From the NCBI GenBank assembly GCA_949484645.1, contig CASYOT010000002.1, positions 2,912 through 66,911 of the forward strand: DNA of 64,000 nucleotides, given 5' to 3'. The position numbers were made by a program, and so were the translations under genes. Positions 3 through 60,321 of the stretch are shown here, one piece after another. Under the pieces are notes generated by a model that was not told the DNA's origin, made no database searches, and saw nothing but the letters and a program-made list of their open reading frames with translations. The stretch is from an uncultured Lachnospiraceae bacterium (GTDB lineage Bacteria > Bacillota > Clostridia > Lachnospirales > Lachnospiraceae). Every line of letters begins with the position of its first letter. The stretch's first letter is position 1.

Positions 3-173
3 TTAGACAACGTATCTGAGAATACACAGGCAGCAGAATCCCGTATCCGTGATACAGATATGGCTTCTGAAATGGTAGAATACAGCAAGAACAACATTCT
101 TGCGCAGGCTGGACAGTCTATGTTAGCTCAGGCAAACCAGTCAAATCAGGGTGTATTATCATTGTTACAGTAA
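3..173 (+). CDS. flagellin, C-terminal fragment (gene starts upstream of window)
   Basis: Frame-3 translation ...[46 protein letters not shown] matches the conserved C-terminal D0 helix of Hag/FliC flagellins; stop at 171-173. Confidence 0.9.
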
Positions 174-464: not shown

Positions 465-806
465 ATGGAGGAATTTTCAAATTTATTGTGGCACAATATT
501 GAAATTGTTCAGTGCATTTGTAATAAAATCGAGAATCAGGAAGCGTACATTGAGGATATTCGGGGATACCTTCCTTCTCTTAATCAAATGATTACATCAA
601 TATTTACAAATATGCAGCAAGGGCAAATTTCTTTGGAATTGAATCAAGGCTTTATTATTCAGGCGCTAAATGATATTCTATATGGAATAGAAAATGAAGA
701 TTCTGTATTTTTGCTTGATGTATTGCGATATGGGTTATTAGAAATTTATGGATACATAAGTAGTGAACTGCAAAGTGAGGGCTGTTATGAATCAGTTAAT
801 ATATAA
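465..806 (+). CDS. hypothetical small protein (113 aa), first gene of island
   Basis: ORF with GGAGGGG RBS 7 nt upstream of ATG 465; overlaps the Maf-like gene start by 20 nt, which suggests translational coupling; no recognisable domain. Confidence 0.45.
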   Translation: MEEFSNLLWHNIEIVQCICNKIENQEAYIEDIRGYLPSLNQMITSIFTNMQQGQISLELNQGFIIQALNDILYGIENEDSVFLLDVLRYGLLEIYGYISSELQSEGCYESVNI

Positions 807-2685
807 AAAAAATCTGGAGGCGTTAAATGCGAAATATCCTATATGGGCGGCTCTTATAGACGGGGTAAAACGTAAAAAACGAAATTTCAATGTTGAAGCA
901 GAGCAGAGTTTCATGGGAGAAACTATTTTGAAAGTAACTCAAGATGGGAAAATGCGTTACTTAAATGGAAAATATGCTCCTTCGGCAGTAGTGGAACGTT
1001 GGTTTGAAAAACAGGGAAAAATAGAAGAATACGCGCCAATTGTGATAATAGGCATTTCAAATGGAGAACATATACGACAAATTATAGAACGCTCCCCAAA
1101 GACTTCTAATATTTTAATTTATGAGCCATCTTTTGAATTATTCCGCAGGGCGATGCAAGAAGTGGATTTAACATTTCTTTTTGAGATGGATATTCCGGTA
1201 GGGATTATTGTTGAGGGATTAAATGAAGATGAGTTAGAAGCTTTCCTTTATTTATTTATATCTTATGACAATATGGCTTTTCTTCGGTGGTATATTTCAG
1301 GGAATTATCAGGAATTATTTCCAAAAGAAGTGGAAGAATTTGTAGGACGTTTAAAGAATCATGTGTCACAAATCCATATTGGCTGGAATACAAAATTACG
1401 TTATACAAATGTCAGGGCAGTAAATGTATTTGTCAATCTGCCATATTTAGCAGATGGATACAGCATTCGGGAATTGTATGGAATGCTTCCGGAAGACGTT
1501 CCGGTTATTGTCGTTTCAGCAGGCCCATCTTTAAATAAAAACATTATGGAATTGAAAAAAGCAGTCGGGAAAGCCTGTATTATTTCAACAGATACTGCGA
1601 TAAAGCCTCTCTTAAATGCAGGAATCGTGCCGAATTTCTTTATTATTATAGATGGGTTAAAGCCGGAAGTGCTATTTCAACATAAGGATATATCTAAAGT
1701 TCCTATGGTGACTATGACGGCGGTTTCCACAGAGCCGATGTCATGCCATAAAGGGAAAAAATTCTTTTATGGCGCGGAGTCTGCATTTGAAGATGAACTT
1801 ACGGGAGATATAAAGAGGAGCCGTGACGAAGACAGTGACAGAGTGATACCGTTTCTTGTAACTGGCGGTTCTGTTGCGACTTCGGCATATGCGCTGGGTT
1901 TAAATATGGGAGCTAAGACAGTGATATTAGTGGGTCAGGATCTTGCAATGACCGGGAATAAAACGCATGCAGACGGTACATTTCAGGCGCAGATGGATCA
2001 GATTGACAAAAATAGCGGCGAATACTTTGAAGTGGAAGCTATAGATGGCGGCAAGGTTTTGACGAGACTTGATTTTGATATGTACCGTAAATGGTTTGAA
2101 GACCATTTTAAGCAGTGGAATCATGTCACAGTCGTAGATGCGACAGAAGGCGGAGCATTAATTCATGGAACGAAAGTAATGACTTTAAAAAAGGCAGTTC
2201 AAAAATATTGTGTGCATGAATTTAATGTAAAGTGGCATACGGATCGCTGCAAAAAATTATTTCAAGATGAACAGCGGGAAGTTGTGTTGGATTATTTTGC
2301 AAATTCCCTAAAAAAATTACAGGAAGTGAAGAAAAAAGCGACAGAAGGGATTCGTTTCTATGAACGTCTGGAGAAGATGGCGAAAAAAAGCTCGGTATCA
2401 GATCAGGAGCTTGGAAAGGCTTTGAAAAAAATCAAGAAATTAAATCATTATATGGAAACTGACTATATGGCGCGCACTGTTATGGATAGTTTAGATGGTC
2501 TAAATTTTACGTTAAGGCCGCTTGCTTATCAATTAAGAGAGGATAAACGGAGCGAGCTTTTAGATGTGGCTAGTCAGGGAAAAGTGCTACTTTACGGGGT
2601 GGCAGTTGCAGTAGATGAAGTATCTGAGATAGCGGAAAAGACGATTGTGCAGTACGCCAATTCCAACAGGACGAAACGGAAATAA
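787..2685 (+). CDS. Maf-family (motility accessory factor, DUF115/MptE-like) putative flagellin nonulosonic-acid glycosyltransferase
   Basis: N-terminus MNQLIYKKNLEALNAKYP resembles the Maf N-terminal signature; VIVVSAGPSLNKN matches the DUF115 GPSL motif; about 630 aa, typical Maf length; located next to flagellin. Confidence 0.7.
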   Translation: MNQLIYKKNLEALNAKYPIWAALIDGVKRKKRNFNVEAEQSFMGETILKVTQDGKMRYLNGKYAPSAVVERWFEKQGKIEEYAPIVIIGISNGEHIRQIIERSPKTSNILIYEPSFELFRRAMQEVDLTFLFEMDIPVGIIVEGLNEDELEAFLYLFISYDNMAFLRWYISGNYQELFPKEVEEFVGRLKNHVSQIHIGWNTKLRYTNVRAVNVFVNLPYLADGYSIRELYGMLPEDVPVIVVSAGPSLNKNIMELKKAVGKACIISTDTAIKPLLNAGIVPNFFIIIDGLKPEVLFQHKDISKVPMVTMTAVSTEPMSCHKGKKFFYGAESAFEDELTGDIKRSRDEDSDRVIPFLVTGGSVATSAYALGLNMGAKTVILVGQDLAMTGNKTHADGTFQAQMDQIDKNSGEYFEVEAIDGGKVLTRLDFDMYRKWFEDHFKQWNHVTVVDATEGGALIHGTKVMTLKKAVQKYCVHEFNVKWHTDRCKKLFQDEQREVVLDYFANSLKKLQEVKKKATEGIRFYERLEKMAKKSSVSDQELGKALKKIKKLNHYMETDYMARTVMDSLDGLNFTLRPLAYQLREDKRSELLDVASQGKVLLYGVAVAVDEVSEIAEKTIVQYANSNRTKRK

Positions 2686-2765: not shown

Positions 2766-3749
2766 TTATTTTAGGTACTTGAACCAATCTTCCGTGGCAT
2801 CGACAATGGTATCCGGCGTCCATACAGGAGCTTTCCGCCAATAGTCAATGTTTTCAAGGACTTTGCTAACGCCATCTTCAAATGAGATTTTAGGCTCCCA
2901 TCCCAGAACATCATGAATTTTTGAAGTGTCAGCAAATGTGCAGTCGGGTTCTCCGGGTCTTTTTGGGATATTTGTGATTTCACCGCCCAATAGTTCACAC
3001 AGCCTGTTTATAGAGTAGGTTCCTCCGCTTCCAACGTTGAATGTGTCTTGTTTGATATCCGACATAGCGGCTGTATAAAAAGCGTCGACAATATCTGTTA
3101 CATATGTAAAGTCCCTTGTTTGAGTTCCATCTCCTACAACGGTAAATGGTTTGTTGGCTAGTTTTTGGGCTAAAAATACGCCAAATACAGCCCCATAAGT
3201 GCCGGAAGTCCTCGATCTTGTGCCATATACGTTGAATAGTCTCAAAGTAATCACAGGAAGACCGTAGACTTGCCCCCAGTGCAAGATGGTTTCTTCCCCT
3301 AATCTTTTTGTAAGGGCATAAGGATACTGTGGCCTGATTTCGGCTGTTTCTCTGGTAGGGTATTGGTCAGGAATGCCATAACAGGAAGATGAAGCGGCAT
3401 AAAGCAGCTTTTTGATATTTGTGTTTTTCGCGCATTCCACTACATTAAACGTTCCTAGGACATTAGAGGAGTAATAATCTTGAGGCCTCTGAATAGATGG
3501 AACGATGTCGGCTAATGCCGCAAAGTGGAAAATGTAGTCCACATCTTTAAAAATAGGCTGGATTTCCTCCTTATTTCGAATGTCCATTTGATAGATGCTG
3601 AGATTTTTGTGGCCTTTGAGGTGATCTAGGTTTTCTAATCTTCCAGTGCTTAAATTATCAATTACGCGGACGTCATGCCCTTCAGATAAAAGCCTATCCA
3701 CCATATGGGAGCCAATAAATCCGCACCCGCCTGTAACCAGTGACGTCAT
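2766..3749 (-). CDS. NAD-dependent epimerase/dehydratase family (extended SDR) nucleotide-sugar modifying enzyme
   Basis: N-terminal TGGCGFIGSHMVDRL Rossmann motif, catalytic YxxxK (YPYALTK), 327 aa; last gene of a gmhA-gmhB operon, so possibly a heptose epimerase or reductase. Confidence 0.75.
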   Translation of the reverse strand: MTSLVTGGCGFIGSHMVDRLLSEGHDVRVIDNLSTGRLENLDHLKGHKNLSIYQMDIRNKEEIQPIFKDVDYIFHFAALADIVPSIQRPQDYYSSNVLGTFNVVECAKNTNIKKLLYAASSSCYGIPDQYPTRETAEIRPQYPYALTKRLGEETILHWGQVYGLPVITLRLFNVYGTRSRTSGTYGAVFGVFLAQKLANKPFTVVGDGTQTRDFTYVTDIVDAFYTAAMSDIKQDTFNVGSGGTYSINRLCELLGGEITNIPKRPGEPDCTFADTSKIHDVLGWEPKISFEDGVSKVLENIDYWRKAPVWTPDTIVDATEDWFKYLK

Positions 3750-4309
3750 ATACTGTTTCCTTCCTTTCTTTCTAATATTTTAATAAAGTCCCTCAAATCT
3801 TTCAATGTATAATCGGGAACTACTATTTCTTCTAGGCGCGCAACTCCATAACCGGAATCAAGCAATACCGTTTTTAAGTTCGCATTTTCGCCAAGCCGTA
3901 TATCACATGCGCGATCTCCAACTACATAAGAGCCATTCATAGTTATTTGAAAATCTGAACAGGCTTTTTCTAACATACCTATAGCGGGTTTGCGGCAATT
4001 ACAATTAAAGGCATAGCCTTGTATCACGCCTTTTTGATGATGTGGGCAGTAATACACAGCATCAACTCCTGTCTCTTGTATGAGATATTGATTCATGGAG
4101 AGAAGCGTTTCTTCCGTGAAATAACCGCGCGCAATCCCGCTTTGGTTAGAAACGACAATCGCATAGTAACCATAAGTATGTATTTTTTCTATACAGCTTT
4201 TGGAGTATGGGAAAATTTCCAGCTCATTTGTGGAACGGATATAGCTTTTTTCTTTAGTAAGAACGCCATCTCTATCAAGGAAAATAGCGGGTTTTGCTTT
4301 CTTTTTCAA
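3746..4309 (-). CDS. gmhB: D-glycero-D-manno-heptose 1,7-bisphosphate phosphatase-like HAD-IIIA phosphatase (GmhB-like)
   Basis: FLDRDGVL HAD motif I, SNQSGIARG motif, about 187 aa, same pattern as GmhB/histidinol-phosphatase family; overlaps gmhA by 4 nt. Confidence 0.75.
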   Translation of the reverse strand: MKKKAKPAIFLDRDGVLTKEKSYIRSTNELEIFPYSKSCIEKIHTYGYYAIVVSNQSGIARGYFTEETLLSMNQYLIQETGVDAVYYCPHHQKGVIQGYAFNCNCRKPAIGMLEKACSDFQITMNGSYVVGDRACDIRLGENANLKTVLLDSGYGVARLEEIVVPDYTLKDLRDFIKILERKEGNSI

Positions 4310-4887
4310 ATGGATGCCCCTTCACTTTCTAATATCATATCTACTATTTGTTGTAAAATTAAATTATGGGCTGATTCCACAATGCCATATTTACTGCAAG
4401 GAGTATAGACGTTAATATCGCCTAATTGCCTTGCCTTATTGTCAGGGCTAAAACCTGTAAATGTAATGACTTTTGCATTTTTTGCTTTGGCTGTTTGAAT
4501 TGCATTGATAATATTTTGTGAATTGCCTGAACTGCTGATTGCCACGACTAAATCATCTTTTTTTACAAGAAAATCCATTGGTTTTGAAAATATATATTCA
4601 TAACCATAATCGTTGCCAATGCAGGTTGTCAAAGCGTTATCATACAGGTTATATGCGTTCATTTTTCCGTTTTTCATAAAATCTGCCGCCATATGGCTGG
4701 CAATGGCAGCGCTGCCGCCGTTTCCTACGAAAAAGAGATTTGAGCAGAAACGTTTATGTTCAAGAAAAACATCAAAAAGCATTTGGATGCCTTCTGTGTA
4801 GGTTTCGTGGTATGAACCGTCTTTTTTTTGTATTTTCGTTGATTCTAATGTTTGTATAAATGTGTTAATATAATTATTTTGCAGCAT
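4306..4887 (-). CDS. gmhA: phosphoheptose (sedoheptulose-7-phosphate) isomerase, SIS domain (GmhA-like)
   Basis: SIS-domain signature FFVGNGGSAAIASHMAADF, 193 aa, typical GmhA size; 4-nt overlap with gmhB. Confidence 0.8.
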   Translation of the reverse strand: MLQNNYINTFIQTLESTKIQKKDGSYHETYTEGIQMLFDVFLEHKRFCSNLFFVGNGGSAAIASHMAADFMKNGKMNAYNLYDNALTTCIGNDYGYEYIFSKPMDFLVKKDDLVVAISSSGNSQNIINAIQTAKAKNAKVITFTGFSPDNKARQLGDINVYTPCSKYGIVESAHNLILQQIVDMILESEGASI

Positions 4888-5496: not shown

Positions 5497-7077
5497 ATGA
5501 ATTTAGAAGCTGAATTTGAACGGTTAAAAACATGTTCCCGTATTTTGATTTGGGGCGGCGGTTATCATACGAAAGAGGCGCTAAGGTTTTATAAATCTTT
5601 TTTTAGGGAACGGGACATACAGATTGTAGATAAGAATAAGGCAGGCCAAAGCATAGAAGGATATAAAATTATTGCTTCAGATGAAGCAGATTATTCGATT
5701 GATTATGTTGTGATTATGTCGTCAATATACCATGATGAAATTGAATATGCTTTGCGGAACAGACATGGTTATCAAGGGGCAGTGATAGGTTTATATGCGT
5801 TTCGGAGAGTTCTTTTAAAACTGGATTCATATGAAGAATGTATTGGGCATATGGAAGATTTTGTGTCTCATATGGAACAAGGCATAGCAAGTTATTCTTA
5901 CGACTATATATTTCAAGAAAACTATAGCGTATATAAAAAAATAAGGCTATATGCGTTTTGGGCGTCTTCTATTGGTGAATCAGTCCGGTATTTATCGGCA
6001 TATTATGAAACTGTTTTTAAGGATAAGGCAGAAGATGAATACTGCCTGTTAATTCCCTATATAAAAGGGAATGATTTCGCGAATGGGCAATTTATAGAGG
6101 TTGTTTCCCGTACAGTTCCTATGGTTACATATTGCAACTGTCATTTTTGGGAGTATGCGGTGAAAAAGTACAGAGAGCGTTTTGATTTGACGTCTTATAA
6201 TGAATTTAACGGTATTTTAGTGGATGCATATAATCAATTTGATGAACGGATTATAAACAGGACGTTTTGTGATAAAAAGTTTCCTTTGATTGCCTATACG
6301 CCGGAAGAACGTAAGATGGCGGAATATAAATTAAGGCAAATGGGCGTTTTTGGAGATTTCGTGTGTATATTTGCAAGAGATAACCACTATTTGCAGCATC
6401 AGTATGGACAGGCTTATGGAATTAATGAAATAAGAAATATGGATATCAATTCTTTTAAATCTGCAGTGGATTATTTGGAGGGACAGGGAGTAAAGGCAGT
6501 CCGCATGGGAAAAGTTGTCAACGGGCCGGTCAATCTGCCAAACTGCATAGATTATGCGGCGGATTTCCATAGCGACTTTATGGATTTATATTTATGCGGT
6601 AATTGCAAGTTTTATGCAGGGAGTTTGTCTGGGATTGTTGCGCTTGCCCAGCTTCAAAGCGCGCCTGTGGTTTTGCTCGGGGTGGTTCAGCTGGGGATTC
6701 ACAATTCAATACCATATAGGAGCAGAGATATTTACGTCCCAAAGAAAATATATGACAAAAATAAGAAACGTTTTTTAAATTTTACGGAAATATGGGATGC
6801 GGAAATGGCCGCTAAGGACAAAATATCAAAATATTATGGGGAACACGGGCTTGAGTTTATAGAGCTTGGCAAAGAAGAAATAAAAGAAGCGATAGTGGAG
6901 ATGAACGATAAATTAGATGGAGTGTATCAGGAAGACGAACAGGAAAAAGAACTTCAAAAGAAATATCATTTGCTGTTGGAAAACTGGATATTAGAGAATG
7001 GATACCAGTATTCTTATTTCTTGCATATTGACATAAGCGGCAGTTTTATTAAAAAGAATACATTTATGCTTGCATAG
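5497..7077 (+). CDS. hypothetical protein with PglD_N-like Rossmann N-domain and large uncharacterised C-terminal domain (possible transferase)
   Basis: Start chosen at MNLEAEF with GAAGGA RBS (track start 5449 also possible); N-terminal RILIWGGGYHTKEAL...IVDKN resembles the N-domain of paralogs at 26583, 28033 and 30528; no confident family. Confidence 0.4.
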   Translation: MNLEAEFERLKTCSRILIWGGGYHTKEALRFYKSFFRERDIQIVDKNKAGQSIEGYKIIASDEADYSIDYVVIMSSIYHDEIEYALRNRHGYQGAVIGLYAFRRVLLKLDSYEECIGHMEDFVSHMEQGIASYSYDYIFQENYSVYKKIRLYAFWASSIGESVRYLSAYYETVFKDKAEDEYCLLIPYIKGNDFANGQFIEVVSRTVPMVTYCNCHFWEYAVKKYRERFDLTSYNEFNGILVDAYNQFDERIINRTFCDKKFPLIAYTPEERKMAEYKLRQMGVFGDFVCIFARDNHYLQHQYGQAYGINEIRNMDINSFKSAVDYLEGQGVKAVRMGKVVNGPVNLPNCIDYAADFHSDFMDLYLCGNCKFYAGSLSGIVALAQLQSAPVVLLGVVQLGIHNSIPYRSRDIYVPKKIYDKNKKRFLNFTEIWDAEMAAKDKISKYYGEHGLEFIELGKEEIKEAIVEMNDKLDGVYQEDEQEKELQKKYHLLLENWILENGYQYSYFLHIDISGSFIKKNTFMLA

Positions 7078-7126
7078 CATTCTGGCGGGAACAAAATTTG
7101 ATGAATAAACAGGGGGAATTTGAATT

Positions 7127-8188
7127 ATGGCAGATAAAATCCGAATGGATTCGCACAAATTAATTTATCATCCAGAGAGGGTTGCGGCTTGGAAGCGTGG
7201 AGAAAATATATATCCGATTGAATTGGAAATAGGATTAACAAACGCCTGTAATCATAGATGCATTTTTTGCGCAGTGGATTATACAGGTTACAAACCGACA
7301 ATGCTTGAGGCGGATCTTTTAAAATTAAGGATCAGTGAGTTTGCAGAAAAAGGAGTGAAATCTATTATATATGCCGGAGAAGGGGAACCGCTTTTAAATA
7401 AAGACGCGGCAGATATTATTAATTTCACGAAAAAAAGCGGAATAGATGCGGCGTTATCTACAAATGGAGCATTGCTTACGCCGGAAGCATCGAGAGACTG
7501 TCTGGCTTCTTTGACATGGATTCGTTTTAGTACGGCCGCAATTAGAGAAAAAACGTATGAGAAAATCCATCAATGCCGGAAAGGAGAGCTTAAAACTGTT
7601 TTAAATAATATTCAGGAAGCAGTCCGGACGAAAAAAGATCAAGGGCTCAAAACGACGATTGGCGCGCAATTATTGCTTCTGCCGGATAATAAAGATGAAG
7701 TTGTGGAGATGGCGAAGGAAATGAAAAAAATAGGAGTGGATTATTTTACGGTAAAACCATTTTCGCAGCATCCGTCAAGCGGCAATATCTTGCAAGTGGA
7801 TTATCAGGAATTACTGGAATTGGAACGGGAATTAGAAGGAATTGGAACGGAAGAATTTAAAATATATTTCCGGGCGCATTCTATGAAGAAATTGGCATGT
7901 GAGCGCGGTTATAAGCAATGTCTGGCGCTGCCATTTATGGTATACATTGATGCGAAGGGGAATTTATGGCCCTGTATTGTGTTTATGGGGCAGGAACAGT
8001 TTAGTTATGGAAATTTATATAATGCATCATTTGAAGAAATATGGGAAGGAGAGCGGAGGAAGAAGCTGATTCAAGAGTTTTCCCAGATGGATTTAGAGAA
8101 AAATTGCAGGGAGTTGTGCAGGCTGGATGAAATGAATAAGTATCTCAATGATTTGAGAAATCCCGGACTTCATGTAAATTTTATATAG
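7127..8188 (+). CDS. radical SAM enzyme (paralog A) with Cys-rich C-terminal region
   Basis: CNHRCIFC (CxxxCxxC) 40 aa from N-terminus; GEGEPLL glycine-rich SAM motif; C-terminal cysteines suggest an auxiliary cluster; ends in ...HVNFI like the paralog at 9995. Confidence 0.8.
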   Translation: MADKIRMDSHKLIYHPERVAAWKRGENIYPIELEIGLTNACNHRCIFCAVDYTGYKPTMLEADLLKLRISEFAEKGVKSIIYAGEGEPLLNKDAADIINFTKKSGIDAALSTNGALLTPEASRDCLASLTWIRFSTAAIREKTYEKIHQCRKGELKTVLNNIQEAVRTKKDQGLKTTIGAQLLLLPDNKDEVVEMAKEMKKIGVDYFTVKPFSQHPSSGNILQVDYQELLELERELEGIGTEEFKIYFRAHSMKKLACERGYKQCLALPFMVYIDAKGNLWPCIVFMGQEQFSYGNLYNASFEEIWEGERRKKLIQEFSQMDLEKNCRELCRLDEMNKYLNDLRNPGLHVNFI

Positions 8189-8238
8189 TATCCGTTTATT
8201 CCAATAGGAGAATAAATTTTAAGAGTTAGGAGAGAACG

Positions 8239-9084
8239 ATGGATTTAAAAGAGCGGGCGGCTGAAATAAGAAAAATGATTTTTAAAATGGCATACCGGGG
8301 AGGGAGCGGGCATTTGGCATCGGCTTTTTCGATTGTGGAAATTTTAACGGTTTTATATTTTGGGGGAATTTTAAATATAGATCCGAAAAATCCGGATTGG
8401 GCGCAAAGGGATAAATTGATATTAAGCAAGGGACACGCGAGTTTGGCATTATATAGTGTATTGGGTATGAAGGGATTTTTTCCACAAAAAGAGTTACAGA
8501 CTTTTTGCAAGCCGGGTTCAGAATTCGGAGGAGAACCCAGAATGGGGCATATAACGGGCGTAGAGGCGACTACAGGCTCGCTTGGGCATGGGCTTTCATT
8601 TGGCGTGGGGATTGCAATGGCGCATAAGATGAATGGGGAAGCGAACAGGACATATGTGATAATTGGAGATGGCGAATGCCAAGAAGGAAGCATATGGGAA
8701 GCTGTAATAGCGGCGCCGCACCACAAACTAGACAATTTGACAGTGATTTTAGATAATAACAGGCTACAGGCAATGGGGAAAGTGGAGGATATTCTTGCGT
8801 TGCGCCGCCTGCGGGAAAGCTGGGAAAATTTCGGCTGGGGCATCGCAACAGTAGATGGGCACGATATAGAAAAGCTTTGTAAATGTCTGGATAAGGACAG
8901 ACAAACGGAGGATGGCAGACCGCATTTAATTTGTGCGGATACAGTGAAAGGAAAAGGCGTTTCCTTTATGGAAAGCGAGCCCATCTGGCATTATCGGATG
9001 CCGAATGAACAGGAATTAGAAATTGTATTGCAAGATTTGGGCATGACAAGAGAGGAGCTGATTCAATGCGAAATGAATATTTAG
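8239..9084 (+). CDS. transketolase, N-terminal (TPP-binding) subunit
   Basis: GGSGHLASAFS, GSLGHGLSFGVGIAMA and IIGDGECQEG motifs of the split transketolase N-subunit; 281 aa. Confidence 0.9.
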   Translation: MDLKERAAEIRKMIFKMAYRGGSGHLASAFSIVEILTVLYFGGILNIDPKNPDWAQRDKLILSKGHASLALYSVLGMKGFFPQKELQTFCKPGSEFGGEPRMGHITGVEATTGSLGHGLSFGVGIAMAHKMNGEANRTYVIIGDGECQEGSIWEAVIAAPHHKLDNLTVILDNNRLQAMGKVEDILALRRLRESWENFGWGIATVDGHDIEKLCKCLDKDRQTEDGRPHLICADTVKGKGVSFMESEPIWHYRMPNEQELEIVLQDLGMTREELIQCEMNI

Positions 9085-9989
9085 CGGAACTATATCATCT
9101 TGCAAAAAATGATCGGAATGTGCTTTCTTTAGTGTCCGATAATGGCATGATTGTATATGATGAATTTCGGGCGGCTTTTCCAGAGCAATATTTTAATTTT
9201 GGCATTTCAGAATGCCATATGATTGCGGCGGCGGCAGGAATGGCGACATGTGGGAAAATTCCTTTTGCATATACAATTAGTTCATTTTTGGCGTACCGGG
9301 CATACGAATTTTTAAGGCTGGACGTATGTCTGGAAAATTTGAATGTAAAGATAGTTGGAATAGGCACAGGCGTATCTTATGGCTATTTAGGCCCTACGCA
9401 TCATACGACAGAGGATTTGGCTCTTTTGCGATCACTGCCTAATTTGACTATATTTTCTCCGGCAAGCCCAATGGAAGCGCGCGAGGCGGTACGGGCTGCA
9501 TATCAAATAAAGGGACCTGTCTATATCCGGCTTGGCAGCAGCGGGGAACCGGAGGTTCATACGGAAAAATTTTCTTTTGAAATTGGGAAAGGGCAGGTCA
9601 TATTTGACGGGCATGACATTGCGCTGATAACTTCAGGGGCAATCACGGCTGAAGCGAAAATAGCGGCGGAGCGGCTTATGGAAGAAGGAATATCAGTTAA
9701 GCTGATTAGTATGCACACGATAAAGCCTTTTGATGAGGATCTTATAGCAAAAACGGCTGAAAAGGTTTCTAAATTAGCTGTAATAGAAGAACATAATATT
9801 ATCGGCGGGTTAGGAAGCGCAGTGGCTGAGACATTAGCAGACAGGCAGATTGCAATTCCTTTTTATAGAATTGGGTTATATGATCAATTTGCAAAAGGCT
9901 ATGGAACGGGACAACAGGTACGGATGCAAAATAGGCTGGACAGTGAAGGGATTTATCAACAAATCAGCCAATATGTAAAGGAAGGATGA
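9066..9989 (+). CDS. transketolase, C-terminal (pyrimidine-binding) subunit
   Basis: FNFGISECHMIAAAAGMA and PTHHTTEDLALLRSLPN motifs of the split transketolase C-subunit; overlaps the N-subunit gene by 19 nt. Confidence 0.9.
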   Translation: MRNEYLAELYHLAKNDRNVLSLVSDNGMIVYDEFRAAFPEQYFNFGISECHMIAAAAGMATCGKIPFAYTISSFLAYRAYEFLRLDVCLENLNVKIVGIGTGVSYGYLGPTHHTTEDLALLRSLPNLTIFSPASPMEAREAVRAAYQIKGPVYIRLGSSGEPEVHTEKFSFEIGKGQVIFDGHDIALITSGAITAEAKIAAERLMEEGISVKLISMHTIKPFDEDLIAKTAEKVSKLAVIEEHNIIGGLGSAVAETLADRQIAIPFYRIGLYDQFAKGYGTGQQVRMQNRLDSEGIYQQISQYVKEG

Positions 9990-9994
9990 CAAAA

Positions 9995-11104
9995 ATGGAG
10001 TCAGAAAAATTAATATTAGACGGCAGTAAAGTATTATGGCACAAAGATAGAATAGAGCAATGGAAAAGGGGGGAGCGTTTTGCGCCTGTTACGATTGATT
10101 GCGCGCTGACTACGAAATGCAGTTACCGCTGTGTGTATTGTTATGGAAAAATGCAGTGCATAAACCAGTCGGATAATCTTGACGAAGAAACAATTTTACG
10201 CTTTTTAGAGGATGCGGCGGAAATAGGAGTAAAAGCGGTTAGTTTTGTAAGCGATGGAGAAAGCACATGTAACCCACATTTGAAAAAAGCGGTTTTACAT
10301 GGCAAGAGCCTTGGATTAGATATGGCTCTTGGCACAAATGGCTTTTTGTTAAAAGATGAGGAATTAGAGGAAATTTTGCCGGCGCTTACTTATCTGCGTT
10401 TTAATATATCGGCTGGGGAGAGGGAACGATATGCCGAAATTCATGGCTGCGCCTTAAAATGCTATGATAAAGTAATTGAAACGATGAAAAAAGCGGTAGA
10501 TATTAGGGAGAAGAAAGATCTGGCGGTTACAATTGGAATGCAAATGGTTTTAATGCCGGATTTTGCAGATCAGATTCTTCCGCTTACAAAGTTAGGCAGA
10601 GAGATTGGCGTGGATTATCTCGTGATTAAACATTGTAGTGATGATGAGGAAGGCACGCTTGGCGTAAATTACGAAAAATATGATGCCGTGATTCCGGTTT
10701 TAAAGGAAGCGGAAACTTATTCTACGGATAAGTATCAGGTTTCGGCAAAATGGTCAAAGATTTTAAGCCATGGGAAGAAAAGTTACTGTAAGTGTTTTGG
10801 AGCCCCCTTTATTCTTCAAATGTCGGGTACGGGCCTTGTGGCTCCTTGTGGAATGTTTTTCAATGAGAAATACAGTAAATACCATATTGGAAATATTAAG
10901 GAAAAGAGATTTAAAGAGATATTTGAAAGCGACAGGTATTGGGAAGTTATGAAAATGATAACAGACGAAACTTTTGATCCAAACCGCGATTGCGGTACGC
11001 TCTGTCTTCAGCATAAAACAAATGAGGCATTGTGGAAGATCTATCAAACAGGGACAATTCCAAAGAGTCCGGAAATTGAACCGAATCATATTAATTTTAT
11101 ATAA
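9995..11104 (+). CDS. radical SAM enzyme (paralog B of 7127..8188)
   Basis: CSYRCVYC CxxxCxxC motif; aligns along its length with the 7127 protein (KRGE..P..IDCALT..C.YRC..C, shared C-terminal ...INFI); start set to ATG 9995 for better RBS spacing (track 9986). Confidence 0.8.
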   Translation: MESEKLILDGSKVLWHKDRIEQWKRGERFAPVTIDCALTTKCSYRCVYCYGKMQCINQSDNLDEETILRFLEDAAEIGVKAVSFVSDGESTCNPHLKKAVLHGKSLGLDMALGTNGFLLKDEELEEILPALTYLRFNISAGERERYAEIHGCALKCYDKVIETMKKAVDIREKKDLAVTIGMQMVLMPDFADQILPLTKLGREIGVDYLVIKHCSDDEEGTLGVNYEKYDAVIPVLKEAETYSTDKYQVSAKWSKILSHGKKSYCKCFGAPFILQMSGTGLVAPCGMFFNEKYSKYHIGNIKEKRFKEIFESDRYWEVMKMITDETFDPNRDCGTLCLQHKTNEALWKIYQTGTIPKSPEIEPNHINFI

Positions 11105-11143
11105 ATTTCAGAAATCTGGAAAAATAAGCATGGAGGCTGAAAA

Positions 11144-12673
11144 ATGGCACTTGTTGTGACAAAAGCGGAATTTAGGAATATAAGAAAGGAATTGCGGGCG
11201 GAAGGGAAGAAAGTGGTTCTCTGCCATGGCGTATTTGATTTAGTGCATCCCGGCCATATCATTCATTTTGAAGAAGCAAAAAAGATGGGGGACGTTTTAG
11301 TGGCGTCTGTCACGGCGGCAAAATATGTGAGAAAAGGTCCGGATAGGCCGTATTTTGGAGATGAGATGCGTCTGAAATTTTTATCTTCGATTGCGTATAT
11401 TGATTATATTCTTTTGTCAGAGGGCTTTACTGTAGATGATATTATTGAAGCGGCGGAGCCGGACTTGTATGTAAAAGGCTCGGAGTATCAGGCGCAAGAA
11501 GATGACATTACCGGAAAGATTGCCGGAGAAATAGAGCTGGTCCGTAAACATGGAGGGGAAATTGCTTATACAGGCGGGCAGGTGTTTAGTTCAACGAAAC
11601 TAATCAACCATGCTTTTCCATCACTTTCTGAGGAAGTGAAACAATTTATGAAATCATTTTCAGATAAGTATAGTTTATCTGAAATCAGAGCGCTGGCGGA
11701 AAAAATTTCGGGCTTTAAGATAGCGGTAATTGGAGACGTAATTATAGATGAATATATTTATTGCAATGTACAGGGGTTAATGTCGAAAGACAGGGGATAT
11801 TCTGCCCGTTATAGATATGTGGAGCAGTATTTAGGCGGTTCGTTAGCCGTGGCGAGGCATATTGCCTCATTTTGTGACGACGTCACTCTTTTGAGCGTTG
11901 TAGGGAAAGAGGAGGCGGTACATAGCCGGATGTTAGACGAACTTGGCGATAAGATGAGGATAGACGTAACGTTTAGCGATGTTTTTGAAACCATTATAAA
12001 AACACGGTACGTTTCCATGAATGAAAAACGGGAAGAGCTTGATAAAATTTTCGCTGTAAATAACCTTCCTGTATATATGCGCATTGATAAACCTGCATTA
12101 GATAAGTTTAAAGAAAAAATAAAAGAGAAAATAGAACAGTGTGACGTGGTTATTTTGTGTGATTTTGGGCATGGGCTGATAGATGAAGAAGTGATGGATT
12201 TGATTCAGTCTAAGGCGAAGTTTTTAGCGTTGAACTGCCAGACTAATTCATCGAATTATGGAAAAAATTTAATTACAAAATATAAACGGGCAGATGTATT
12301 TGCGATTGACCAGAAAGAATTGGGGCTGGCATTTGCGAATTACCGTTTAGATGAGCAAGAGCTTCTTCAGAAGTTAGAAAAACATTTGGACTGCCATGGG
12401 TGGCTGACACAGGGATCCCAAGGGGCAGTTTCGATTGAAGATGGAGAAATAAAACATTGTCCGGCATTTGTTTTAAAAGTGAAAGACACCATTGGAGCAG
12501 GGGATGCGTTCTTTTCCATTGCAAGCTTATTTGCGGCAGCAGGCGCTTCCATGGAGATGGGAACATTTATGGGAAATATTGCGGGGGCATTGGCGACAAA
12601 TATCGTAGGAAACAAAAAAGGCATTGATAAAGTAGATGTACTGAAGTACGCTTCTACTTTACTTAATATATGA
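11144..12673 (+). CDS. bifunctional sugar-phosphate nucleotidyltransferase / PfkB-family sugar kinase (HldE-like with reversed domain order)
   Basis: N-terminal cytidylyltransferase-fold domain with the HxGH motif (CHGVFDLVHPGHIIHF), as in RfaE domain II; C-terminal PfkB ribokinase-like domain ending with the GAGDAF anion-hole motif; GGAGG RBS. Confidence 0.7.
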   Translation: MALVVTKAEFRNIRKELRAEGKKVVLCHGVFDLVHPGHIIHFEEAKKMGDVLVASVTAAKYVRKGPDRPYFGDEMRLKFLSSIAYIDYILLSEGFTVDDIIEAAEPDLYVKGSEYQAQEDDITGKIAGEIELVRKHGGEIAYTGGQVFSSTKLINHAFPSLSEEVKQFMKSFSDKYSLSEIRALAEKISGFKIAVIGDVIIDEYIYCNVQGLMSKDRGYSARYRYVEQYLGGSLAVARHIASFCDDVTLLSVVGKEEAVHSRMLDELGDKMRIDVTFSDVFETIIKTRYVSMNEKREELDKIFAVNNLPVYMRIDKPALDKFKEKIKEKIEQCDVVILCDFGHGLIDEEVMDLIQSKAKFLALNCQTNSSNYGKNLITKYKRADVFAIDQKELGLAFANYRLDEQELLQKLEKHLDCHGWLTQGSQGAVSIEDGEIKHCPAFVLKVKDTIGAGDAFFSIASLFAAAGASMEMGTFMGNIAGALATNIVGNKKGIDKVDVLKYASTLLNI

Positions 12674-12711
12674 TGATTCTAAAGATATATTTATAAAATG
12701 GAGGGTAAGAA

Positions 12712-14352
12712 ATGAAGATTTTGTTGGTGGTTCCGCAATACTATAGCCGGAAAGAACGATATTATCAAATGCCATTAGGCTTAGCGTATGTGAATGCAGC
12801 TCTGCGGGAAGCAAATTTAGATGTGCAATGCCTGAATATGAACCATATTGAAGCAGAAGACGCCTATTCAGTTTTAGCTGAACGGGTAGTAAATTCCAAT
12901 ATTGACGTTGTCCTTTGCGGCGGAATAAGCCCGCTTTGGAAAACGATTGAAAAAGTGTTTGATACAGTTAAAAGGGCAAAAGCTTCCATAATTACTGTGG
13001 GGGGGGGTGGAGCCTTTACGTCGGAGCCTCTTATTTCAGCGGAACTTCTTGAAGTAGATTATGCTGTAATTGGAGAAGGGGAGATTACAGATGTAGAGCT
13101 TATTCAAACGTTGATGGCGAATCAGAATGTAAGCAATGTAAAAGGAATTGTATATAAAACGCCGGACGGATATAGGCAGACGGCTCCGAGGGAAGAAATT
13201 GCCGATGTGGATTCCATTCCATTTCCATGCTATGAGGGGTTTGACATGGATTTATATTTAGAAAATCAAATGGTGAGCGATGAATATTATTCTTTTTATT
13301 CGGACAAGCCGAGAATTATGCCGATGATTTTAGGCAGGTCATGCCCTTATCAATGCAAATTTTGTTTTCACCCTATAGGAAATAAATACAGGGTGCGAAG
13401 TCTGGATAATTTTTTTATGGAACTGGATCAATGGAAGAATAAGTATGCTCCAACCTGTATTTTGATATTAGATGAATTATTTAGCGCAAGCGTTGAAAGA
13501 GTGTATGAGTTTTGTGAAAGAATAAAAGGATATGAGATAAAATGGATTGTCCAAATGCGGGTGGATATTATCACGAAAGAGTTATTGCAGACAATGCGGG
13601 ACGCCGGATGCCTCAGCATCAGTTATGGACTTGAAAGTTTTAGCCCTGCAGTTTTGAAAAATATGAGAAAACATATCTCTTTAGCAGACATAGAAAACGC
13701 TTTAAAATTGACTTATGAAGCAAAAATAGACATTCAGGGCAATTTTATTTTTGGAGACGAGTTAGAAAATGAGCATACGATATATGAAACATTGCGGTTT
13801 TGGTTTCAGCATCCAGAATATAAAATTAATTTGGGGTGGATAGAGACATATCCGGGATGCGGCTATTATCAGGAATTATCAAAAAATTGGAGCGTTGAGG
13901 AGAAAAAAGCATTTTTAGAAATGAGTGAATGGCTGACAAATTTAACAAAGATGCCAGATGAAGAATATGGGAAATATAAAGTTGTGATTCAACTGCTTAC
14001 ATTTTATTATAACCCAGATTGTGTGAAAGAAAAAGAGACGCGGACAGACGAAAATGGCGATGGGATTATTGAAGCGAAGTGCGTGCATTGCGGTTCGGTA
14101 AATCGGTGGGCAGGAGTTAAAAAATATCTGCTAAATCAATCGTATTTTAAATTATGCTGCCGGAAATGCAATCATAGGAATGTGATTTACAGCAGGAAAG
14201 AAAGGTTAAAAAATTGGGATTTAATTCTGCCATTATGTGAGAAAATGGCTTTGGCAACAAAGGAAGATGAATTTATTAAAGCGGTAAACGCTTTATATGA
14301 GACGTATATGGTGACGCATGACCCAGAAAATCCATTTCCTGTTTTGTTTTAG
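12712..14352 (+). CDS. B12-binding (class B) radical SAM enzyme, putative sugar C-methyltransferase or related
   Basis: N-terminal B12-binding-like region (MKILLVVPQYY...PLGLAYVNAAL) followed by CPYQCKFC radical SAM motif; 546 aa; contains an in-frame G9 tract at 12999..13007. Confidence 0.75.
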   Translation: MKILLVVPQYYSRKERYYQMPLGLAYVNAALREANLDVQCLNMNHIEAEDAYSVLAERVVNSNIDVVLCGGISPLWKTIEKVFDTVKRAKASIITVGGGGAFTSEPLISAELLEVDYAVIGEGEITDVELIQTLMANQNVSNVKGIVYKTPDGYRQTAPREEIADVDSIPFPCYEGFDMDLYLENQMVSDEYYSFYSDKPRIMPMILGRSCPYQCKFCFHPIGNKYRVRSLDNFFMELDQWKNKYAPTCILILDELFSASVERVYEFCERIKGYEIKWIVQMRVDIITKELLQTMRDAGCLSISYGLESFSPAVLKNMRKHISLADIENALKLTYEAKIDIQGNFIFGDELENEHTIYETLRFWFQHPEYKINLGWIETYPGCGYYQELSKNWSVEEKKAFLEMSEWLTNLTKMPDEEYGKYKVVIQLLTFYYNPDCVKEKETRTDENGDGIIEAKCVHCGSVNRWAGVKKYLLNQSYFKLCCRKCNHRNVIYSRKERLKNWDLILPLCEKMALATKEDEFIKAVNALYETYMVTHDPENPFPVLF

Positions 14353-14369: not shown

Positions 14370-15068
14370 TTAAATTGTGACATTAAAGTATTGTTGGGCC
14401 TTACAGTATTTTTTCTGCCTGTTTCTGATTAAGACACTGCCGTCAGGGTTACGCAGCACAACGGAATCATCGGAGACCGGCTGTCCATATACAAACGCAT
14501 CTACTCCAATGGATACACGGTTTCCGATTGGTTCATTGCCTATAATTTTAGCTCCGGCGGCTAAGTAGAGCCCTTTTCCGAGTTTTGGGACAGTTTCGCC
14601 GACAGGGCTTTCACCGGTATTGATGGTGACATTTTGGCCTATTACAAGAAAATCACTGTAAGCTGCATTGCCAATTACGCTTCCTACCGGATGTGTAAGG
14701 AAGAATATTTCCGGCAGTTTGCCTTTGTAAGAGATAAAAAAACTATGTAAAGTTTTATTCAAGTAAATTAATTTGTCACAGACAGATTTGTTTGCGGAAA
14801 GCTCCCACAGTGAGTTAGCCCAAAAATATAAAAACTGGGCATACTGGTCAGAATGCAGATGCGAGAAAAATGTTTCGCCTTGGTTATCTGAATATGCGGA
14901 ATTTTTAATAAAACGGAAGCAATGCTCTGTCCGTTCTAAGGCGCGTTCAAAAGCGGCGTCAACGTCGCTGCCTTTTAGAGTATGAGTATTGCGATCCGGA
15001 AAAAAAAGCTCTAACTGATGCAGCGTATATGTTTGAAGTTCTTGTTTCGGTAATGATAGGTTCATTTC
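14370..15068 (-). CDS. hexapeptide-repeat (left-handed beta-helix) acetyltransferase, serine-acetyltransferase-like
   Basis: C-terminal LbH repeats (VIGQNVTINTG...AGAKIIGNEPIGNRVSIGVDAFV) preceded by a helical N-domain as in CysE-like O-acetyltransferases; start set to the internal MNLSL with GGAAG RBS (track start 15182). Confidence 0.65.
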   Translation of the reverse strand, partial: EMNLSLPKQELQTYTLHQLELFFPDRNTHTLKGSDVDAAFERALERTEHCFRFIKNSAYSDNQGETFFSHLHSDQYAQFLYFWANSLWELSANKSVCDKLIYLNKTLHSFFISYKGKLPEIFFLTHPVGSVIGNAAYSDFLVIGQNVTINTGESPVGETVPKLGKGLYLAAGAKIIGNEPIGNRVSIGVDAFVYGQPVSDDSVVLRNPDGSVLIRNRQKKYCKAQQYFNVTI

Positions 15069-16033
15069 TTCTTCCTTTTTTGAATATAAATTGGCTCTAA
15101 AATAAAACGTGGGAGAATTGCGTATGGCCATACATGGAACCATATCGTAGGATATTTGTATGTATTTAAAAATAATATCCATTTATCGTCCATATCATAC
15201 TGATTATCCTCTACGCTGTATTTTAGGATAGAATCTTTAATAAATCCTTTCATGTCAGTAAGAAAGATTTTTTTCATCTGGCTTTTTGGAAAACCGGCTT
15301 TTACGGCTGTTTGGAGCAAAAGTCTTTTATATTGCTTTACCCAGACTTCAAATAAATTAAATCCGCCGCTGTTATTATTTTTTGCGGCTAAATAGGGGGC
15401 TTTTGTCAGGATCATTTTAGTATTTTTGCCTGAGAGAATGTGAAATACGATATGCGCGTGTAGAAAATGGGTTCCAAAATATTTCTCAGGATGCTTTATT
15501 TGTTTAAATTTGCTCATTTTCAGAACGGTTGCAGATATATACGTTACATAAACGCCAATGTAATTCATCAGAAGGGTTTTATCGTAAGTAATCAGATCGT
15601 TTGTTTCCCTAAGTTTTATTCTTGGCGCTTTTCTAATGTCCGGATTGAATGTCTGTGTTGAATATGTAAAAGAATTTATATTAATATAGGCTGGTCTTTC
15701 TGTTTTTATCAGATATAATATTTTTTTTATCGCTCCGGGCAGCAATATGTCATCGTCCGAGAGAAACTGTATATATTCGCCGTTCGCTTTTTGGAAACAG
15801 TTAAAAAAATTTTTATCCATACCCAAATTTTTTGAATTACGATAATAACGTATCTTATGTTCTTTGCAATATTTTTTCATTACTTTTGGGGTCTCGTCTG
15901 TGGAAGCGTTATCTGATACAAGGATTTCAACGCCGTCTTCCAACTGCCCTAGCGCGCTTTCTAATGACTGGCATAATAAATGACAGCGGTTATAGGTAGG
16001 GATAGCGACTGTCAGTATAATTTTTTGTCCCAT
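15062..16033 (-). CDS. family 2 glycosyltransferase (GT-A fold)
   Basis: IPTYNRCHLLCQSLESALGQ...VSDNASTDET...DDD motifs typical of GT2; start set to MGQKIIL with RBS (track start 16138 overlaps the upstream gene). Confidence 0.8.
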   Translation of the reverse strand: MGQKIILTVAIPTYNRCHLLCQSLESALGQLEDGVEILVSDNASTDETPKVMKKYCKEHKIRYYRNSKNLGMDKNFFNCFQKANGEYIQFLSDDDILLPGAIKKILYLIKTERPAYININSFTYSTQTFNPDIRKAPRIKLRETNDLITYDKTLLMNYIGVYVTYISATVLKMSKFKQIKHPEKYFGTHFLHAHIVFHILSGKNTKMILTKAPYLAAKNNNSGGFNLFEVWVKQYKRLLLQTAVKAGFPKSQMKKIFLTDMKGFIKDSILKYSVEDNQYDMDDKWILFLNTYKYPTIWFHVWPYAILPRFILEPIYIQKRKKK

Positions 16034-16037
16034 GATC

Positions 16038-16970
16038 TTACCTCTTTCTTTTGGTTTCATAATACTGGATTGTTTTTTGGATGCCTTCTTCAAAGGGAAT
16101 TTCAGGCTTCCAGCCGGTATCTCTTGTAAGAGGTTCAATATTGATACAAGAACTTGGCATTATGCCGGGGGAGCTGATTTTTCTTTCGGGAGGGGGAGTT
16201 TTTTCTCCAATGCCTAAAGGAAGCGATGGGTTTATCATGTCCCGAATAGTTAAGACGTATTCCCGAAGTGTTTTGTGCGTTCCGCTTCCTATTCCATATG
16301 TAATATTATGCCTGCCTTTCTCTCCAATTTTAATAATTGCTTTTGCTACATCTGATACATAGACAAAATCCCAATTAGACTGGAGATTGCCATAGACAGG
16401 GTATTTGCCATCTAAAAGAGTGGTAATCGTATAAGTCAGGATATTGTCTTCTGTTCTTCCTTCCCCATATGTGCTTGGAAGAACAGTCCAAATCATATCC
16501 TGCCCTAATTGCGCGGCAACGGCTTCTAACAGATAGTGGACGGAAGTTTTTGTGGCTCCATAGATGTCAATGGGCGTCTGTTTCCTTGAAAAATCAATGA
16601 CGCATACATTATAAACATATTCTGCCACTGTGCCTGCGGCCAGAAATAGTTTGCATTTTAAATATTTAGAGAGACGTAACATATCCAGAGAAGTTTCGAT
16701 ATTGCTTAATTGCAAAGGAATGTTGTTTTTTTCTTTCCCAGAAACGCCTGCCCAGCCAAGATGATAAAATATATCATATGTTTTTCCAGACAGCCTTTGC
16801 GCCAGTTCTTTAAATTGATAGCCGGCAGTTATTGTTTTTACGGAAGAATTATGAAATGGCATAGAGGAGGGGGAGGAGGTCAGGACGGTTACGTTAGCGC
16901 CTGATTTTAATAATTCCGCAACAACATATCTGCCGATAAATCCGGTTCCTCCTGTAAGAATGGCTTTCAT
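16038..16970 (-). CDS. NAD-dependent epimerase/dehydratase family (SDR) sugar reductase/epimerase
   Basis: MKAILTGGTGFIGRYVVAELL Rossmann motif; YGATK catalytic YxxxK; 310 aa. Confidence 0.75.
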   Translation of the reverse strand: MKAILTGGTGFIGRYVVAELLKSGANVTVLTSSPSSMPFHNSSVKTITAGYQFKELAQRLSGKTYDIFYHLGWAGVSGKEKNNIPLQLSNIETSLDMLRLSKYLKCKLFLAAGTVAEYVYNVCVIDFSRKQTPIDIYGATKTSVHYLLEAVAAQLGQDMIWTVLPSTYGEGRTEDNILTYTITTLLDGKYPVYGNLQSNWDFVYVSDVAKAIIKIGEKGRHNITYGIGSGTHKTLREYVLTIRDMINPSLPLGIGEKTPPPERKISSPGIMPSSCINIEPLTRDTGWKPEIPFEEGIQKTIQYYETKRKR

Positions 16971-60146: not shown

Positions 60147-60321
60147 TGGGTGTTTGGAAATGAAATCAGGCATTCTTTTGCTTTTGGGCAGGAGGATGCC
60201 TGATTTATTTTTGGGTTTATTGTAAACTTATTTTTGTGATTGGTTGACAATCTGGAAGGGGTATTATAGAATTGGAAATGGATATTATGGAGGGGAGGGG
60301 TATGGGACGATGGGTTTATCG

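Follow-up and report, generated by a model that had tools for sequence, protein, structure and literature searches.

What does an HldE-like enzyme make when its two catalytic domains stand in the opposite order and its gene lies in a Gram-positive-type genome, and does the order itself matter? These questions are raised by one gene of an uncultured Lachnospiraceae bacterium, encoding a 509-amino-acid fusion of a nucleotidyltransferase and a PfkB-type kinase. The stretch analyzed, referred to as the window, comprises 64,000 nucleotides of GenBank assembly GCA_949484645.1 (contig CASYOT010000002.1, positions 2,912 to 66,911 of the forward strand). Judged by its sequence, the protein is a variant of HldE with swapped domains and a distinct sequence, and it belongs to a large family already present in the databases. 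It is probably a bifunctional enzyme of a nucleotide-heptose pathway, arranged as nucleotidyltransferase, linker and kinase, that would feed the flagellin glycosylation encoded by the surrounding gene island. The domain swap alone is a modest evolutionary curiosity, and the setting of the gene is the more interesting part.

Domain order of the fusion protein

The open reading frame (ORF) starts with ATG, 8 nt downstream of a Shine-Dalgarno sequence, and lies within a dense run of genes on the same strand (5449-14352), with a spacing of 39 to 40 nt to its neighbors. A scan for promoters and terminators returned matches at chance level. The first-pass annotation had described an HldE-like bifunctional protein with the nucleotidyltransferase first and the kinase last, and both the Pfam domain order and BLASTP against HldE agreed with it. 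The Pfam boundary mapping that it had proposed placed CTP_transf_like (PF01467) at residues 27-118 (E = 1.6e-12, 48.2 bits versus a gathering threshold of 21), ahead of PfkB (PF00294) at residues 192-485 (E = 7e-15, 55.5 bits versus 25.8). The string CHGVFDLVHPGH was present at residues 27-38 and GAGDAF at residues 451-456.

In BLASTP, residues 4-140 matched residues 322-453 of Escherichia coli K-12 HldE (35% identity, E = 2e-20), and residues 193-490 matched HldE residues 13-300 (22% identity, E = 2e-15). Since each half of the protein aligned with the opposite half of HldE, the domain order is truly reversed. The AlphaFold2 (AF2) model had a predicted local distance difference test score (pLDDT) of 89.6 and a predicted TM score (pTM) of 0.84, and its linker consisted of two helices, residues 163-175 and 178-188, with pLDDT values of 64 to 95. 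An assembly or frameshift artifact was ruled out by hundreds of collinear full-length homologs and a good ribosome-binding site.

Relationship of the two halves to heptose enzymes

The N-terminal half matched the NCBIfam model rfaE_dom_II (TIGR02199) at residues 14-155 with 91.3 bits versus an equivalog cut-off of 181.5, and the family profile retrieved HldC (5x9q) as its top sequence match in the Protein Data Bank (PDB; E = 3.4e-29). The TagD-type model TIGR01518 stayed below its equivalog cut-off, with 39.1 versus 165.4 bits. The first-pass annotation had allowed that this domain might not be a nucleotidyltransferase at all and might instead be FAD-synthetase-like. That option was discarded, as rfaE_dom_II and HldC matched best and models for RibL or FAD synthetase were absent from the matches; the domain is a true nucleotidyltransferase of the HxGH type, and its nearest relatives are rfaE domain II and HldC.

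Residue conservation was taken from an alignment of 32 diverse members with 30-56% identity. In the nucleotidyltransferase half, R76 was invariant next to the HxGH residues listed in Table 1. The KGxxRP motif is also found in E. coli HldE (KGDSRP) and HldC (KGDDRP), and it occurred in 120 of the 135 full-length representatives. Near the end of the domain, S149 and S150 were invariant within a family consensus phi-F-S-S-[ST]. In a MAFFT alignment, FEDGCSTT of HldE lined up with G-QVFSST of the fusion, so that F148 occupied the Arg position of the STTR5 motif variant, and none of 13 aligned family members had Arg there. According to commentaries on Tang et al. (2024), the STTR5 Arg marks CTP/UTP promiscuity in the heptose nucleotidyltransferases termed HENases.

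The C-terminal half matched rfaE_dom_I (TIGR02198) at residues 186-490 with 119.7 bits versus an equivalog cut-off of 345. HldA (4e84) was the top PDB sequence match of the family profile (E = 7e-27) and also the best fold match of the model in Foldseek (E = 1.5e-21, target-normalized TM score 0.83), with the next kinase five orders of magnitude behind (E = 1.5e-16). The ribokinase fold was confirmed by the matches of the model to HldA, YihV, PfkB, and ribokinase, and the ribokinase-like C-terminal domain with GAGDAF that had been reported at first pass was borne out, with rfaE domain I and HldA as its closest relatives. Conservation extended to the positions that set this kinase apart. In DFGHG, which takes the place of DYAKG in HldA and HldE, D340 and G342 were invariant, and H343 and G344 were at least 90% conserved; in the inserted NxQTNSxNxG motif, N364, Q366, N368, and N371 were conserved to at least 90%. 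The NxxE motif has a role in the PfkB family, and E392 of its counterpart was invariant, as was G451 of the anion hole, with G453, D454, and A455 at least 90% conserved.

For all 32 members, HldE, rfaE_dom_I, and rfaE_dom_II were the best-matching models (best E values 8e-54, 1e-41, and 2e-33), the remaining kinase and nucleotidyltransferase models being far weaker. The catalytic motifs of both domains were intact, namely, HxGH and KGxxRP in the first and GAGD with D454 and E392 in the second.

Conserved partners of the fusion

Like the folds and motifs, gene order and natural gene fusions around the family were observed directly. Synteny was counted over 20 genome loci with homologs of the fusion, whose carriers include Lachnospiraceae, Elusimicrobia, Pelagibacteraceae (SAR11), and Waddliaceae. 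An orthologous short-chain dehydrogenase/reductase (SDR) gene was present in 17 of the 20, usually abutting the fusion gene, a GmhA-like gene in 15, a split transketolase in 12, a GmhB-like gene in 9 (a count limited by flank length), and a gene for the motility accessory factor (Maf) in 7. Several Lachnospiraceae loci had the plain order fusion-SDR-SIS-HAD. On the plasmid of Azospirillum oryzae, the RefSeq annotation gave the order SDR-SDR-fusion-SIS-SDR-E1alpha-E1beta-DegT-DegT-hypothetical-radical S-adenosylmethionine (SAM) enzyme-NUDIX. A similar arrangement was found around P0176 (locus L022, 8001-10100), a natural triple fusion of 699 amino acids that carries a GmhB-like HAD domain in front of the nucleotidyltransferase and PfkB domains. 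In a second triple fusion, P0234 (L024, 3749-6043; 764 amino acids), the nucleotidyltransferase and PfkB domains are followed by an SIS domain.

In the window, gmhA was the best NCBIfam match of the GmhA-like SIS protein (90.8 bits versus a cut-off of 209), and its top 13 PDB matches were all phosphoheptose isomerases. The GmhB-like HAD protein scored 149.5 versus 178 bits with the beta-specific GmhB model and 100 versus 250 bits with the alpha-specific one, and its best PDB match was E. coli GmhB (1.4e-29). The SDR was the most constant partner, being 54% identical even in the SAR11 locus. It has the SSS and YxxxK motifs and no TDE dehydratase triad, which removed a 4,6-dehydratase from consideration; its PDB neighbors were GalE, UXS, and Pal. 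HldD was not among its top 60 PDB matches, and an assignment as HldD was likewise rejected. The SDR probably acts on the nucleoside diphosphate (NDP)-heptose product.

The split transketolase was frequent and not obligatory, its place elsewhere being taken by an E1 alpha/beta pair or by an acetolactate synthase (ALS)-like enzyme, both dependent on thiamine diphosphate (ThDP). The radical SAM/SPASM enzyme encoded directly upstream of the fusion had orthologs with 53-54% identity in Elusimicrobia and SAR11 (L016, 12535-13710; L018, 19102-20259), where it was better conserved than the fusion itself (36-39%), which suggests a tightly linked, conserved function.

Predicted pathway and alternatives

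The four-step beta-heptose route comprises an isomerase, an anomeric kinase, a 7-phosphatase, and a nucleotidyltransferase, and the fusion would provide steps 2 and 4. The GmhA-like SIS isomerase would catalyze step 1. The C-terminal PfkB domain would then phosphorylate O1 at the expense of ATP to give the beta-1,7-bisphosphate, from which the GmhB-like HAD phosphatase would remove the 7-phosphate, and the nucleotidyltransferase domain would convert the remaining monophosphate into NDP-heptose. The activated heptose may subsequently be modified by the partner SDR and by the ThDP enzymes, aminotransferases, and radical SAM enzymes of the island, and the product would be placed on flagellin by the Maf protein and glycosyltransferases encoded there. 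The substrate, its anomer, and the product are predicted here from homology and context.

The kinase and nucleotidyltransferase steps of the route are separated by the GmhB phosphatase (Kneidinger 2002, as summarized in PMC10948575). Because the fused activities do not follow one another directly, the fusion would help to co-express them in a fixed stoichiometry and would not channel an intermediate directly, and the domain order should not matter mechanistically. The different substrate channeling proposed in the first-pass annotation therefore found no support.

Several observations weigh against the assignment to a heptose pathway. The fusion reached 150.5 versus 521 bits with the HldE model (NF008454), both rfaE domain models also remained far below their cut-offs, and so did the GmhA-like partner (91 versus 209 bits); with such scores, the substrate could differ. 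The nucleotidyltransferase does not have the (F/L)xxGxSTT signature that defines heptose nucleotidyltransferases, the kinase motifs on the sugar side are unlike those of HldA and HldE (DFGHG for DYAKG, and the NxQTNSxNxG insertion), and the partner SDR does not resemble HldD. Within the available flanks, loci such as L026 and L017 showed neither an SIS nor an HAD gene, and the literature searched held no biochemical data on any family member.

In an unlikely variant of the scheme, the same chemistry would act on another ketose-derived substrate, such as an octose or a modified heptose, with the ketose coming from the transketolase or an E1-like ThDP enzyme of the cluster. The lincosamide octose route is the analogy behind it. 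ThDP enzymes that recur near the module (split transketolase, E1 alpha/beta pair, or ALS-like type) would fit this variant, as would the family-specific motifs on the substrate side of the kinase and the distance of the fusion and the GmhA-like protein from their equivalog cut-offs. In contrast, all four core proteins are closest to heptose enzymes, L002 and L003 have the core module with no transketolase gene inside 10 kb, and three unrelated, apparently interchangeable types of ThDP enzyme would better fit a late two-carbon transfer onto an NDP-keto-sugar than the making of a single defined ketose phosphate. The octose or other ketose-derived sugar suggested at first pass found no specific support, given GmhA- and GmhB-like partners and a module that can lack a nearby transketolase.

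Considerably less probable is a TagD/ECT/CCT-like activity of the N-terminal domain on a non-anomeric phosphate, by which a phosphate ester supplied by the kinase would be turned into an NDP- (probably CDP-) heptose, heptitol, or polyol donor with reduction by the SDR, parallel to the synthesis of CDP-glycerol and CDP-6-glucitol. Most PF01467 enzymes use phospho-alcohols, the STT-type motif is divergent, the pairing of a nucleotidyltransferase with an SDR resembles CDP-6-D-glucitol synthesis, and, with the family profile, ECT (4e-27) came close to HldC (3e-29). The ECT score, however, sums two domains, the best single one reaching 69 bits versus 105 for HldC, and 16 orders of magnitude separated rfaE_dom_II from the weaker TagD model. 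The fusion shares its KGxxRP motif with HldE and HldC, and a conserved, sometimes fused, GmhB-like bisphosphate phosphatase would have no role in such a pathway. The parallel to CDP-glucitol also breaks down at the level of fold, as the Campylobacter jejuni CDP-6-glucitol cytidylyltransferase belongs to PF01128 and was rejected as a relative.

That one domain is catalytically dead and acts as a scaffold or regulator only, leaving a monofunctional protein, would agree with a RefSeq name that reflects one domain, has no direct evidence in its favor, and is hardly credible with HxGH, R76, the SS pair, GAGD, and E392 invariant or nearly so at 30-56% identity.

Comparison with known heptose enzymes

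The nearest known relative of each half of the proposed heptose enzyme is E. coli HldE, with the same two folds and with HxGH, KGxxRP, and GAGD in common (35% identity for the nucleotidyltransferase, 22% for the kinase). HldE works with GmhA and GmhB, and counterparts of both were indicated for the fusion by its context, that is, by the window genes, the synteny, and the fusions P0176 and P0234. HldE begins with the kinase, whereas the present protein begins with the nucleotidyltransferase and has a two-helix linker; DFGHG replaces DYAKG, NxQTNSxNxG is inserted, and FSS[ST] takes the place of GxSTT. The fusion also scored below the HldE equivalog cut-offs, its partner SDR is not HldD, and its gene lies among flagellin or surface-glycan genes of a Gram-positive-type island and genome, in contrast to the lipopolysaccharide (LPS) core context of HldE. 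The best relatives with solved structures are Burkholderia HldA (4e84) for the C-terminal domain and HldC (5x9q) for the N-terminal domain. These are separate proteins, unlike the fusion with its leading nucleotidyltransferase, and they differ from it in the same motifs as HldE.

Activated heptose for surface glycans other than LPS, as proposed for the fusion, is also made by HddA and HddC, a GHMP kinase and a GDP-heptose pyrophosphorylase of the NTP_transferase type, which form the alpha-anomer GDP-heptose route and supply heptoses for the S-layer and capsule in Aneurinibacillus and Campylobacter. Their folds are unrelated to the PfkB and HxGH folds of the fusion, and the anomer is alpha. The HENases, as far as described in commentaries on Tang et al. 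(2024), comprise mono-domain, kinase/nucleotidyltransferase, and isomerase/kinase/nucleotidyltransferase types with an (F/L)xxGxSTT motif and its STTR5 variant. They catalyze the reaction predicted for the fusion, and the family described here also has multi-domain fusions with partners; by the same account, the domain orders of HENases are kinase/nucleotidyltransferase and isomerase/kinase/nucleotidyltransferase, whereas the order here is reversed and the motif has neither the Gly nor the Arg.

Distribution, annotation, and origin of the reversed fusion

The best 120 matches from a collection of 5.8 billion proteins were inspected. All 120 were 507-536 amino acids long, had PF01467 followed by PF00294, and were 66-100% identical to the fusion; most of them stem from assemblies of Lachnospiraceae, Roseburia, Ruminococcus, and Clostridiales. 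When 1.84 billion representatives of clusters at the 50% identity level were searched exhaustively with HMMER, 938 matched at E <= 1e-30, and nearly all of the best 150 of these 938 were about 500 amino acids long and aligned in one collinear stretch with 31-56% identity. The reversed fusion is also carried by complete RefSeq plasmids of cultured A. oryzae and Solidesulfovibrio carbinolicus, and the Lachnospiraceae isolate XBB1006 (L013) is another cultured carrier. A rare or unique architecture, as implied at first pass, was ruled out by this breadth, the reversed order being very common across phyla.

The first-pass annotation had considered that the order might be common and annotated; it is common, but its annotation is generic only, with database entries called "PfkB family carbohydrate kinase," "adenylyltransferase/cytidyltransferase family protein," or [quoted passage not shown] As the NCBIfam HldE and rfaE models miss the reversed-order family, annotation overlooks a probable heptose-nucleotide pathway in Lachnospiraceae and in other non-LPS contexts. 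The literature searched, to which the primary HENase classification paper did not belong, contained no paper on the reversed order and no characterized member.

A domain order opposite to that of HldE, low identity to it (35% and 22%), and a wide spread over phyla all suggest an old fusion event separate from that of HldE. The independent fusion proposed earlier is a reasonable reading of these sequence data, short of proof. The cases of stand-alone domains are too thin to rebuild the fusion history. P0129 was discarded as a contig-end fragment. P0138 (L031, 838-4008) is a genuine stand-alone kinase of the clade, 340 amino acids long and 49% identical to the C-terminal domain; two radical SAM/SPASM genes follow it, and the upstream gene is unrelated and not a nucleotidyltransferase.

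In Synechococcus phage Sf-FS3 (L033, 4998-8187), a cytidylyltransferase-like protein (135 amino acids) abuts a small PfkB protein (261 amino acids) in the order nucleotidyltransferase-kinase, with carbamoyltransferases and a phosphoheptose isomerase nearby, and many other cyanophages matched the nucleotidyltransferase domain. The phage pair was rejected as a family member, its kinase being 23% identical and of the DYNKG type. The Lachnospiraceae metagenome-assembled genome (MAG) MGBC164316 contained two paralogous modules on separate contigs (L010 and L015), with 71% and 70% identity to the fusion, each with its own transketolase, radical SAM, SDR, and SIS genes. The label of protein P0103 was "Bacteroidales bacterium" in one MAG, and the identical sequence was called "Lachnoclostridium sp." in a second one; inconsistent binning or taxonomy is the probable cause, and the taxon labels of close matches need care.

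Flagellin glycosylation island

The window opens with a translation that we take to be the C terminus of flagellin, and a Maf gene follows directly, which makes the stretch between about 1 and 55 kb a flagellin glycosylation island. About 55 kb of sugar-biosynthesis genes follow Maf, with many SDRs, DegT aminotransferases, a PseB-like enzyme, glycosyltransferases, and two ALS-like ThDP enzymes. Five radical SAM enzymes are encoded (7127-8188, 9986-11104, 12712-14352, 16981-17994, and 29423-30469), four of the SPASM type and one B12-binding, which is unusually many for a sugar pathway. The coordinates of the main features are given in Table 1.

Three unrelated kinds of ThDP enzyme recur near the module, namely, the split transketolase, the E1 alpha/beta pair, and the ALS-like type. 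Their recurrence may reflect the transfer of a two-carbon unit to an NDP-keto-heptose, for which YerE and AviB1/B2 are analogs. Together, the SDR, ThDP, DegT, and radical SAM companions that recur across phyla suggest an undescribed heptose-derived higher sugar. A wider reading, doubtful at present, is that the reversed family is the entry enzyme of a conserved cross-phylum pathway to a chain-extended or branched sugar, formally C9, on flagellin, with Lachnospiraceae, Azospirillum, SAR11, and Elusimicrobia as carriers. In it, the NDP-beta-heptose would be oxidized by the SDR, receive a C2 unit from the ThDP enzyme, be aminated by DegT, and be tailored by radical SAM enzymes, and Maf-type enzymes would attach the resulting higher-carbon sugar to flagellin.

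NDP-beta-heptoses are usually attributed to Gram-negative bacteria. If the proposed function holds, abundant Gram-positive gut commensals would make these agonists of host ALPK1. According to commentaries on Tang et al. (2024), NDP-beta-heptoses serve as building blocks of LPS and, through sensing by ALPK1, act as potent agonists of innate immunity. Assigning the function would name a family of hundreds of sequence clusters, would show whether Gram-positive gut commensals can yield ALPK1 ligands, and would open up flagellin glycosylation islands as an unusually rich source of enzymes that tailor sugars (radical SAM, ThDP, and SDR).

Table 1. Features of the reversed fusion gene, its predicted partners, and the surrounding island (window coordinates unless a locus is named)
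Feature	Coordinates	Strand	Evidence
CDS, 509-amino-acid nucleotidyltransferase-kinase fusion, reversed HldE-like	11144..12673	+	ORF list, Pfam, NCBIfam, full-length homologs
Shine-Dalgarno sequence GGAGG	11131..11135	+	Sequence inspection
N-terminal HxGH nucleotidyltransferase domain, residues ~1-160	11144..11623	+	Pfam, NCBIfam, PDB, BLASTP
HxGH motif HPGH, residues 35-38, NTP-binding signature	11246..11257	+	H35, G37, H38 invariant in 32 members
KGPDRP, residues 64-69	11333..11350	+	Alignments with HldE and HldC
FSST, residues 148-151, family variant of HldE (F/L)xxGxSTT	11585..11596	+	MAFFT with HldE domain II
Two-helix linker, residues ~161-190	11624..11713	+	AF2 model
C-terminal PfkB (ribokinase-like) kinase domain, residues ~191-509	11714..12670	+	Pfam, NCBIfam, PDB, Foldseek
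DFGHG, residues 340-344, family-specific (DYAKG in HldA/HldE)	12161..12175	+	Alignment with HldA
NCQTNSSNYG, residues 364-373, family NxQTNSxNxG, insertion versus HldA VDPKG	12233..12262	+	Alignment with HldA
DQKE, residues 389-392, counterpart of ribokinase-family NxxE	12308..12319	+	Aligns with HldA NRAE
GAGDAF, residues 451-456, PfkB anion hole and catalytic Asp D454	12494..12511	+	Aligns with HldA/HldE GAGD
GmhA-like SIS isomerase, predicted step 1 partner	4306..4887	-	NCBIfam, PDB, synteny, fusion in P0234
GmhB-like HAD phosphatase, predicted step 3 partner	3746..4309	-	NCBIfam, PDB, fusion in P0176
Conserved SDR (GalE/UXS-like)	2766..3749	-	Synteny, motifs, PDB neighbors
Split transketolase (N subunit 8239-9084, C subunit 9066-9989)	8239..9989	+	Pfam, NCBIfam
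Radical SAM/SPASM enzyme directly upstream of the fusion	9986..11104	+	Pfam
B12-binding radical SAM enzyme directly downstream of the fusion	12712..14352	+	Pfam, NCBIfam; orthologs in L009 and L012
Flagellin gene 3' end (presumed; conserved C-terminal D0 segment)	3..170	+	Frame translation
Maf (MptE-like), putative flagellin glycosyltransferase	763..2685	+	PF01973 (E = 1.3e-34); weak Maf_flag10_N
Recurring ThDP enzymes	Window 8239-9989, 18021-19805, 34126-35937; L022 12005-14054; L032 12144-14193		

Other features of the window

The ORF at 5449-7077 (+) encodes a protein of 542 amino acids with no Pfam match and with a TIGR04372-family glycosyltransferase domain (E = 2.4e-51), and has orthologs in L009 and L012. 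Toward its far end, the G+C content of the window increases to about 0.48-0.50, and an apparent BioW-BioF fusion of 661 amino acids encoded there (60244-62229, +) joins a 6-carboxyhexanoate-CoA ligase to an 8-amino-7-oxononanoate synthase-like aminotransferase. The ORFs at 15062-16138 (-) and 16038-16970 (-) overlap by about 100 nt, the overlap being that of a glycosyltransferase family 2 (GT2) ORF with a TTG start and its upstream SDR ORF; translation of the GT2 protein probably begins at a site further downstream. The ORF at 14370-15182, encoding a CysE-like acetyltransferase, also overlaps that at 15062-16138.

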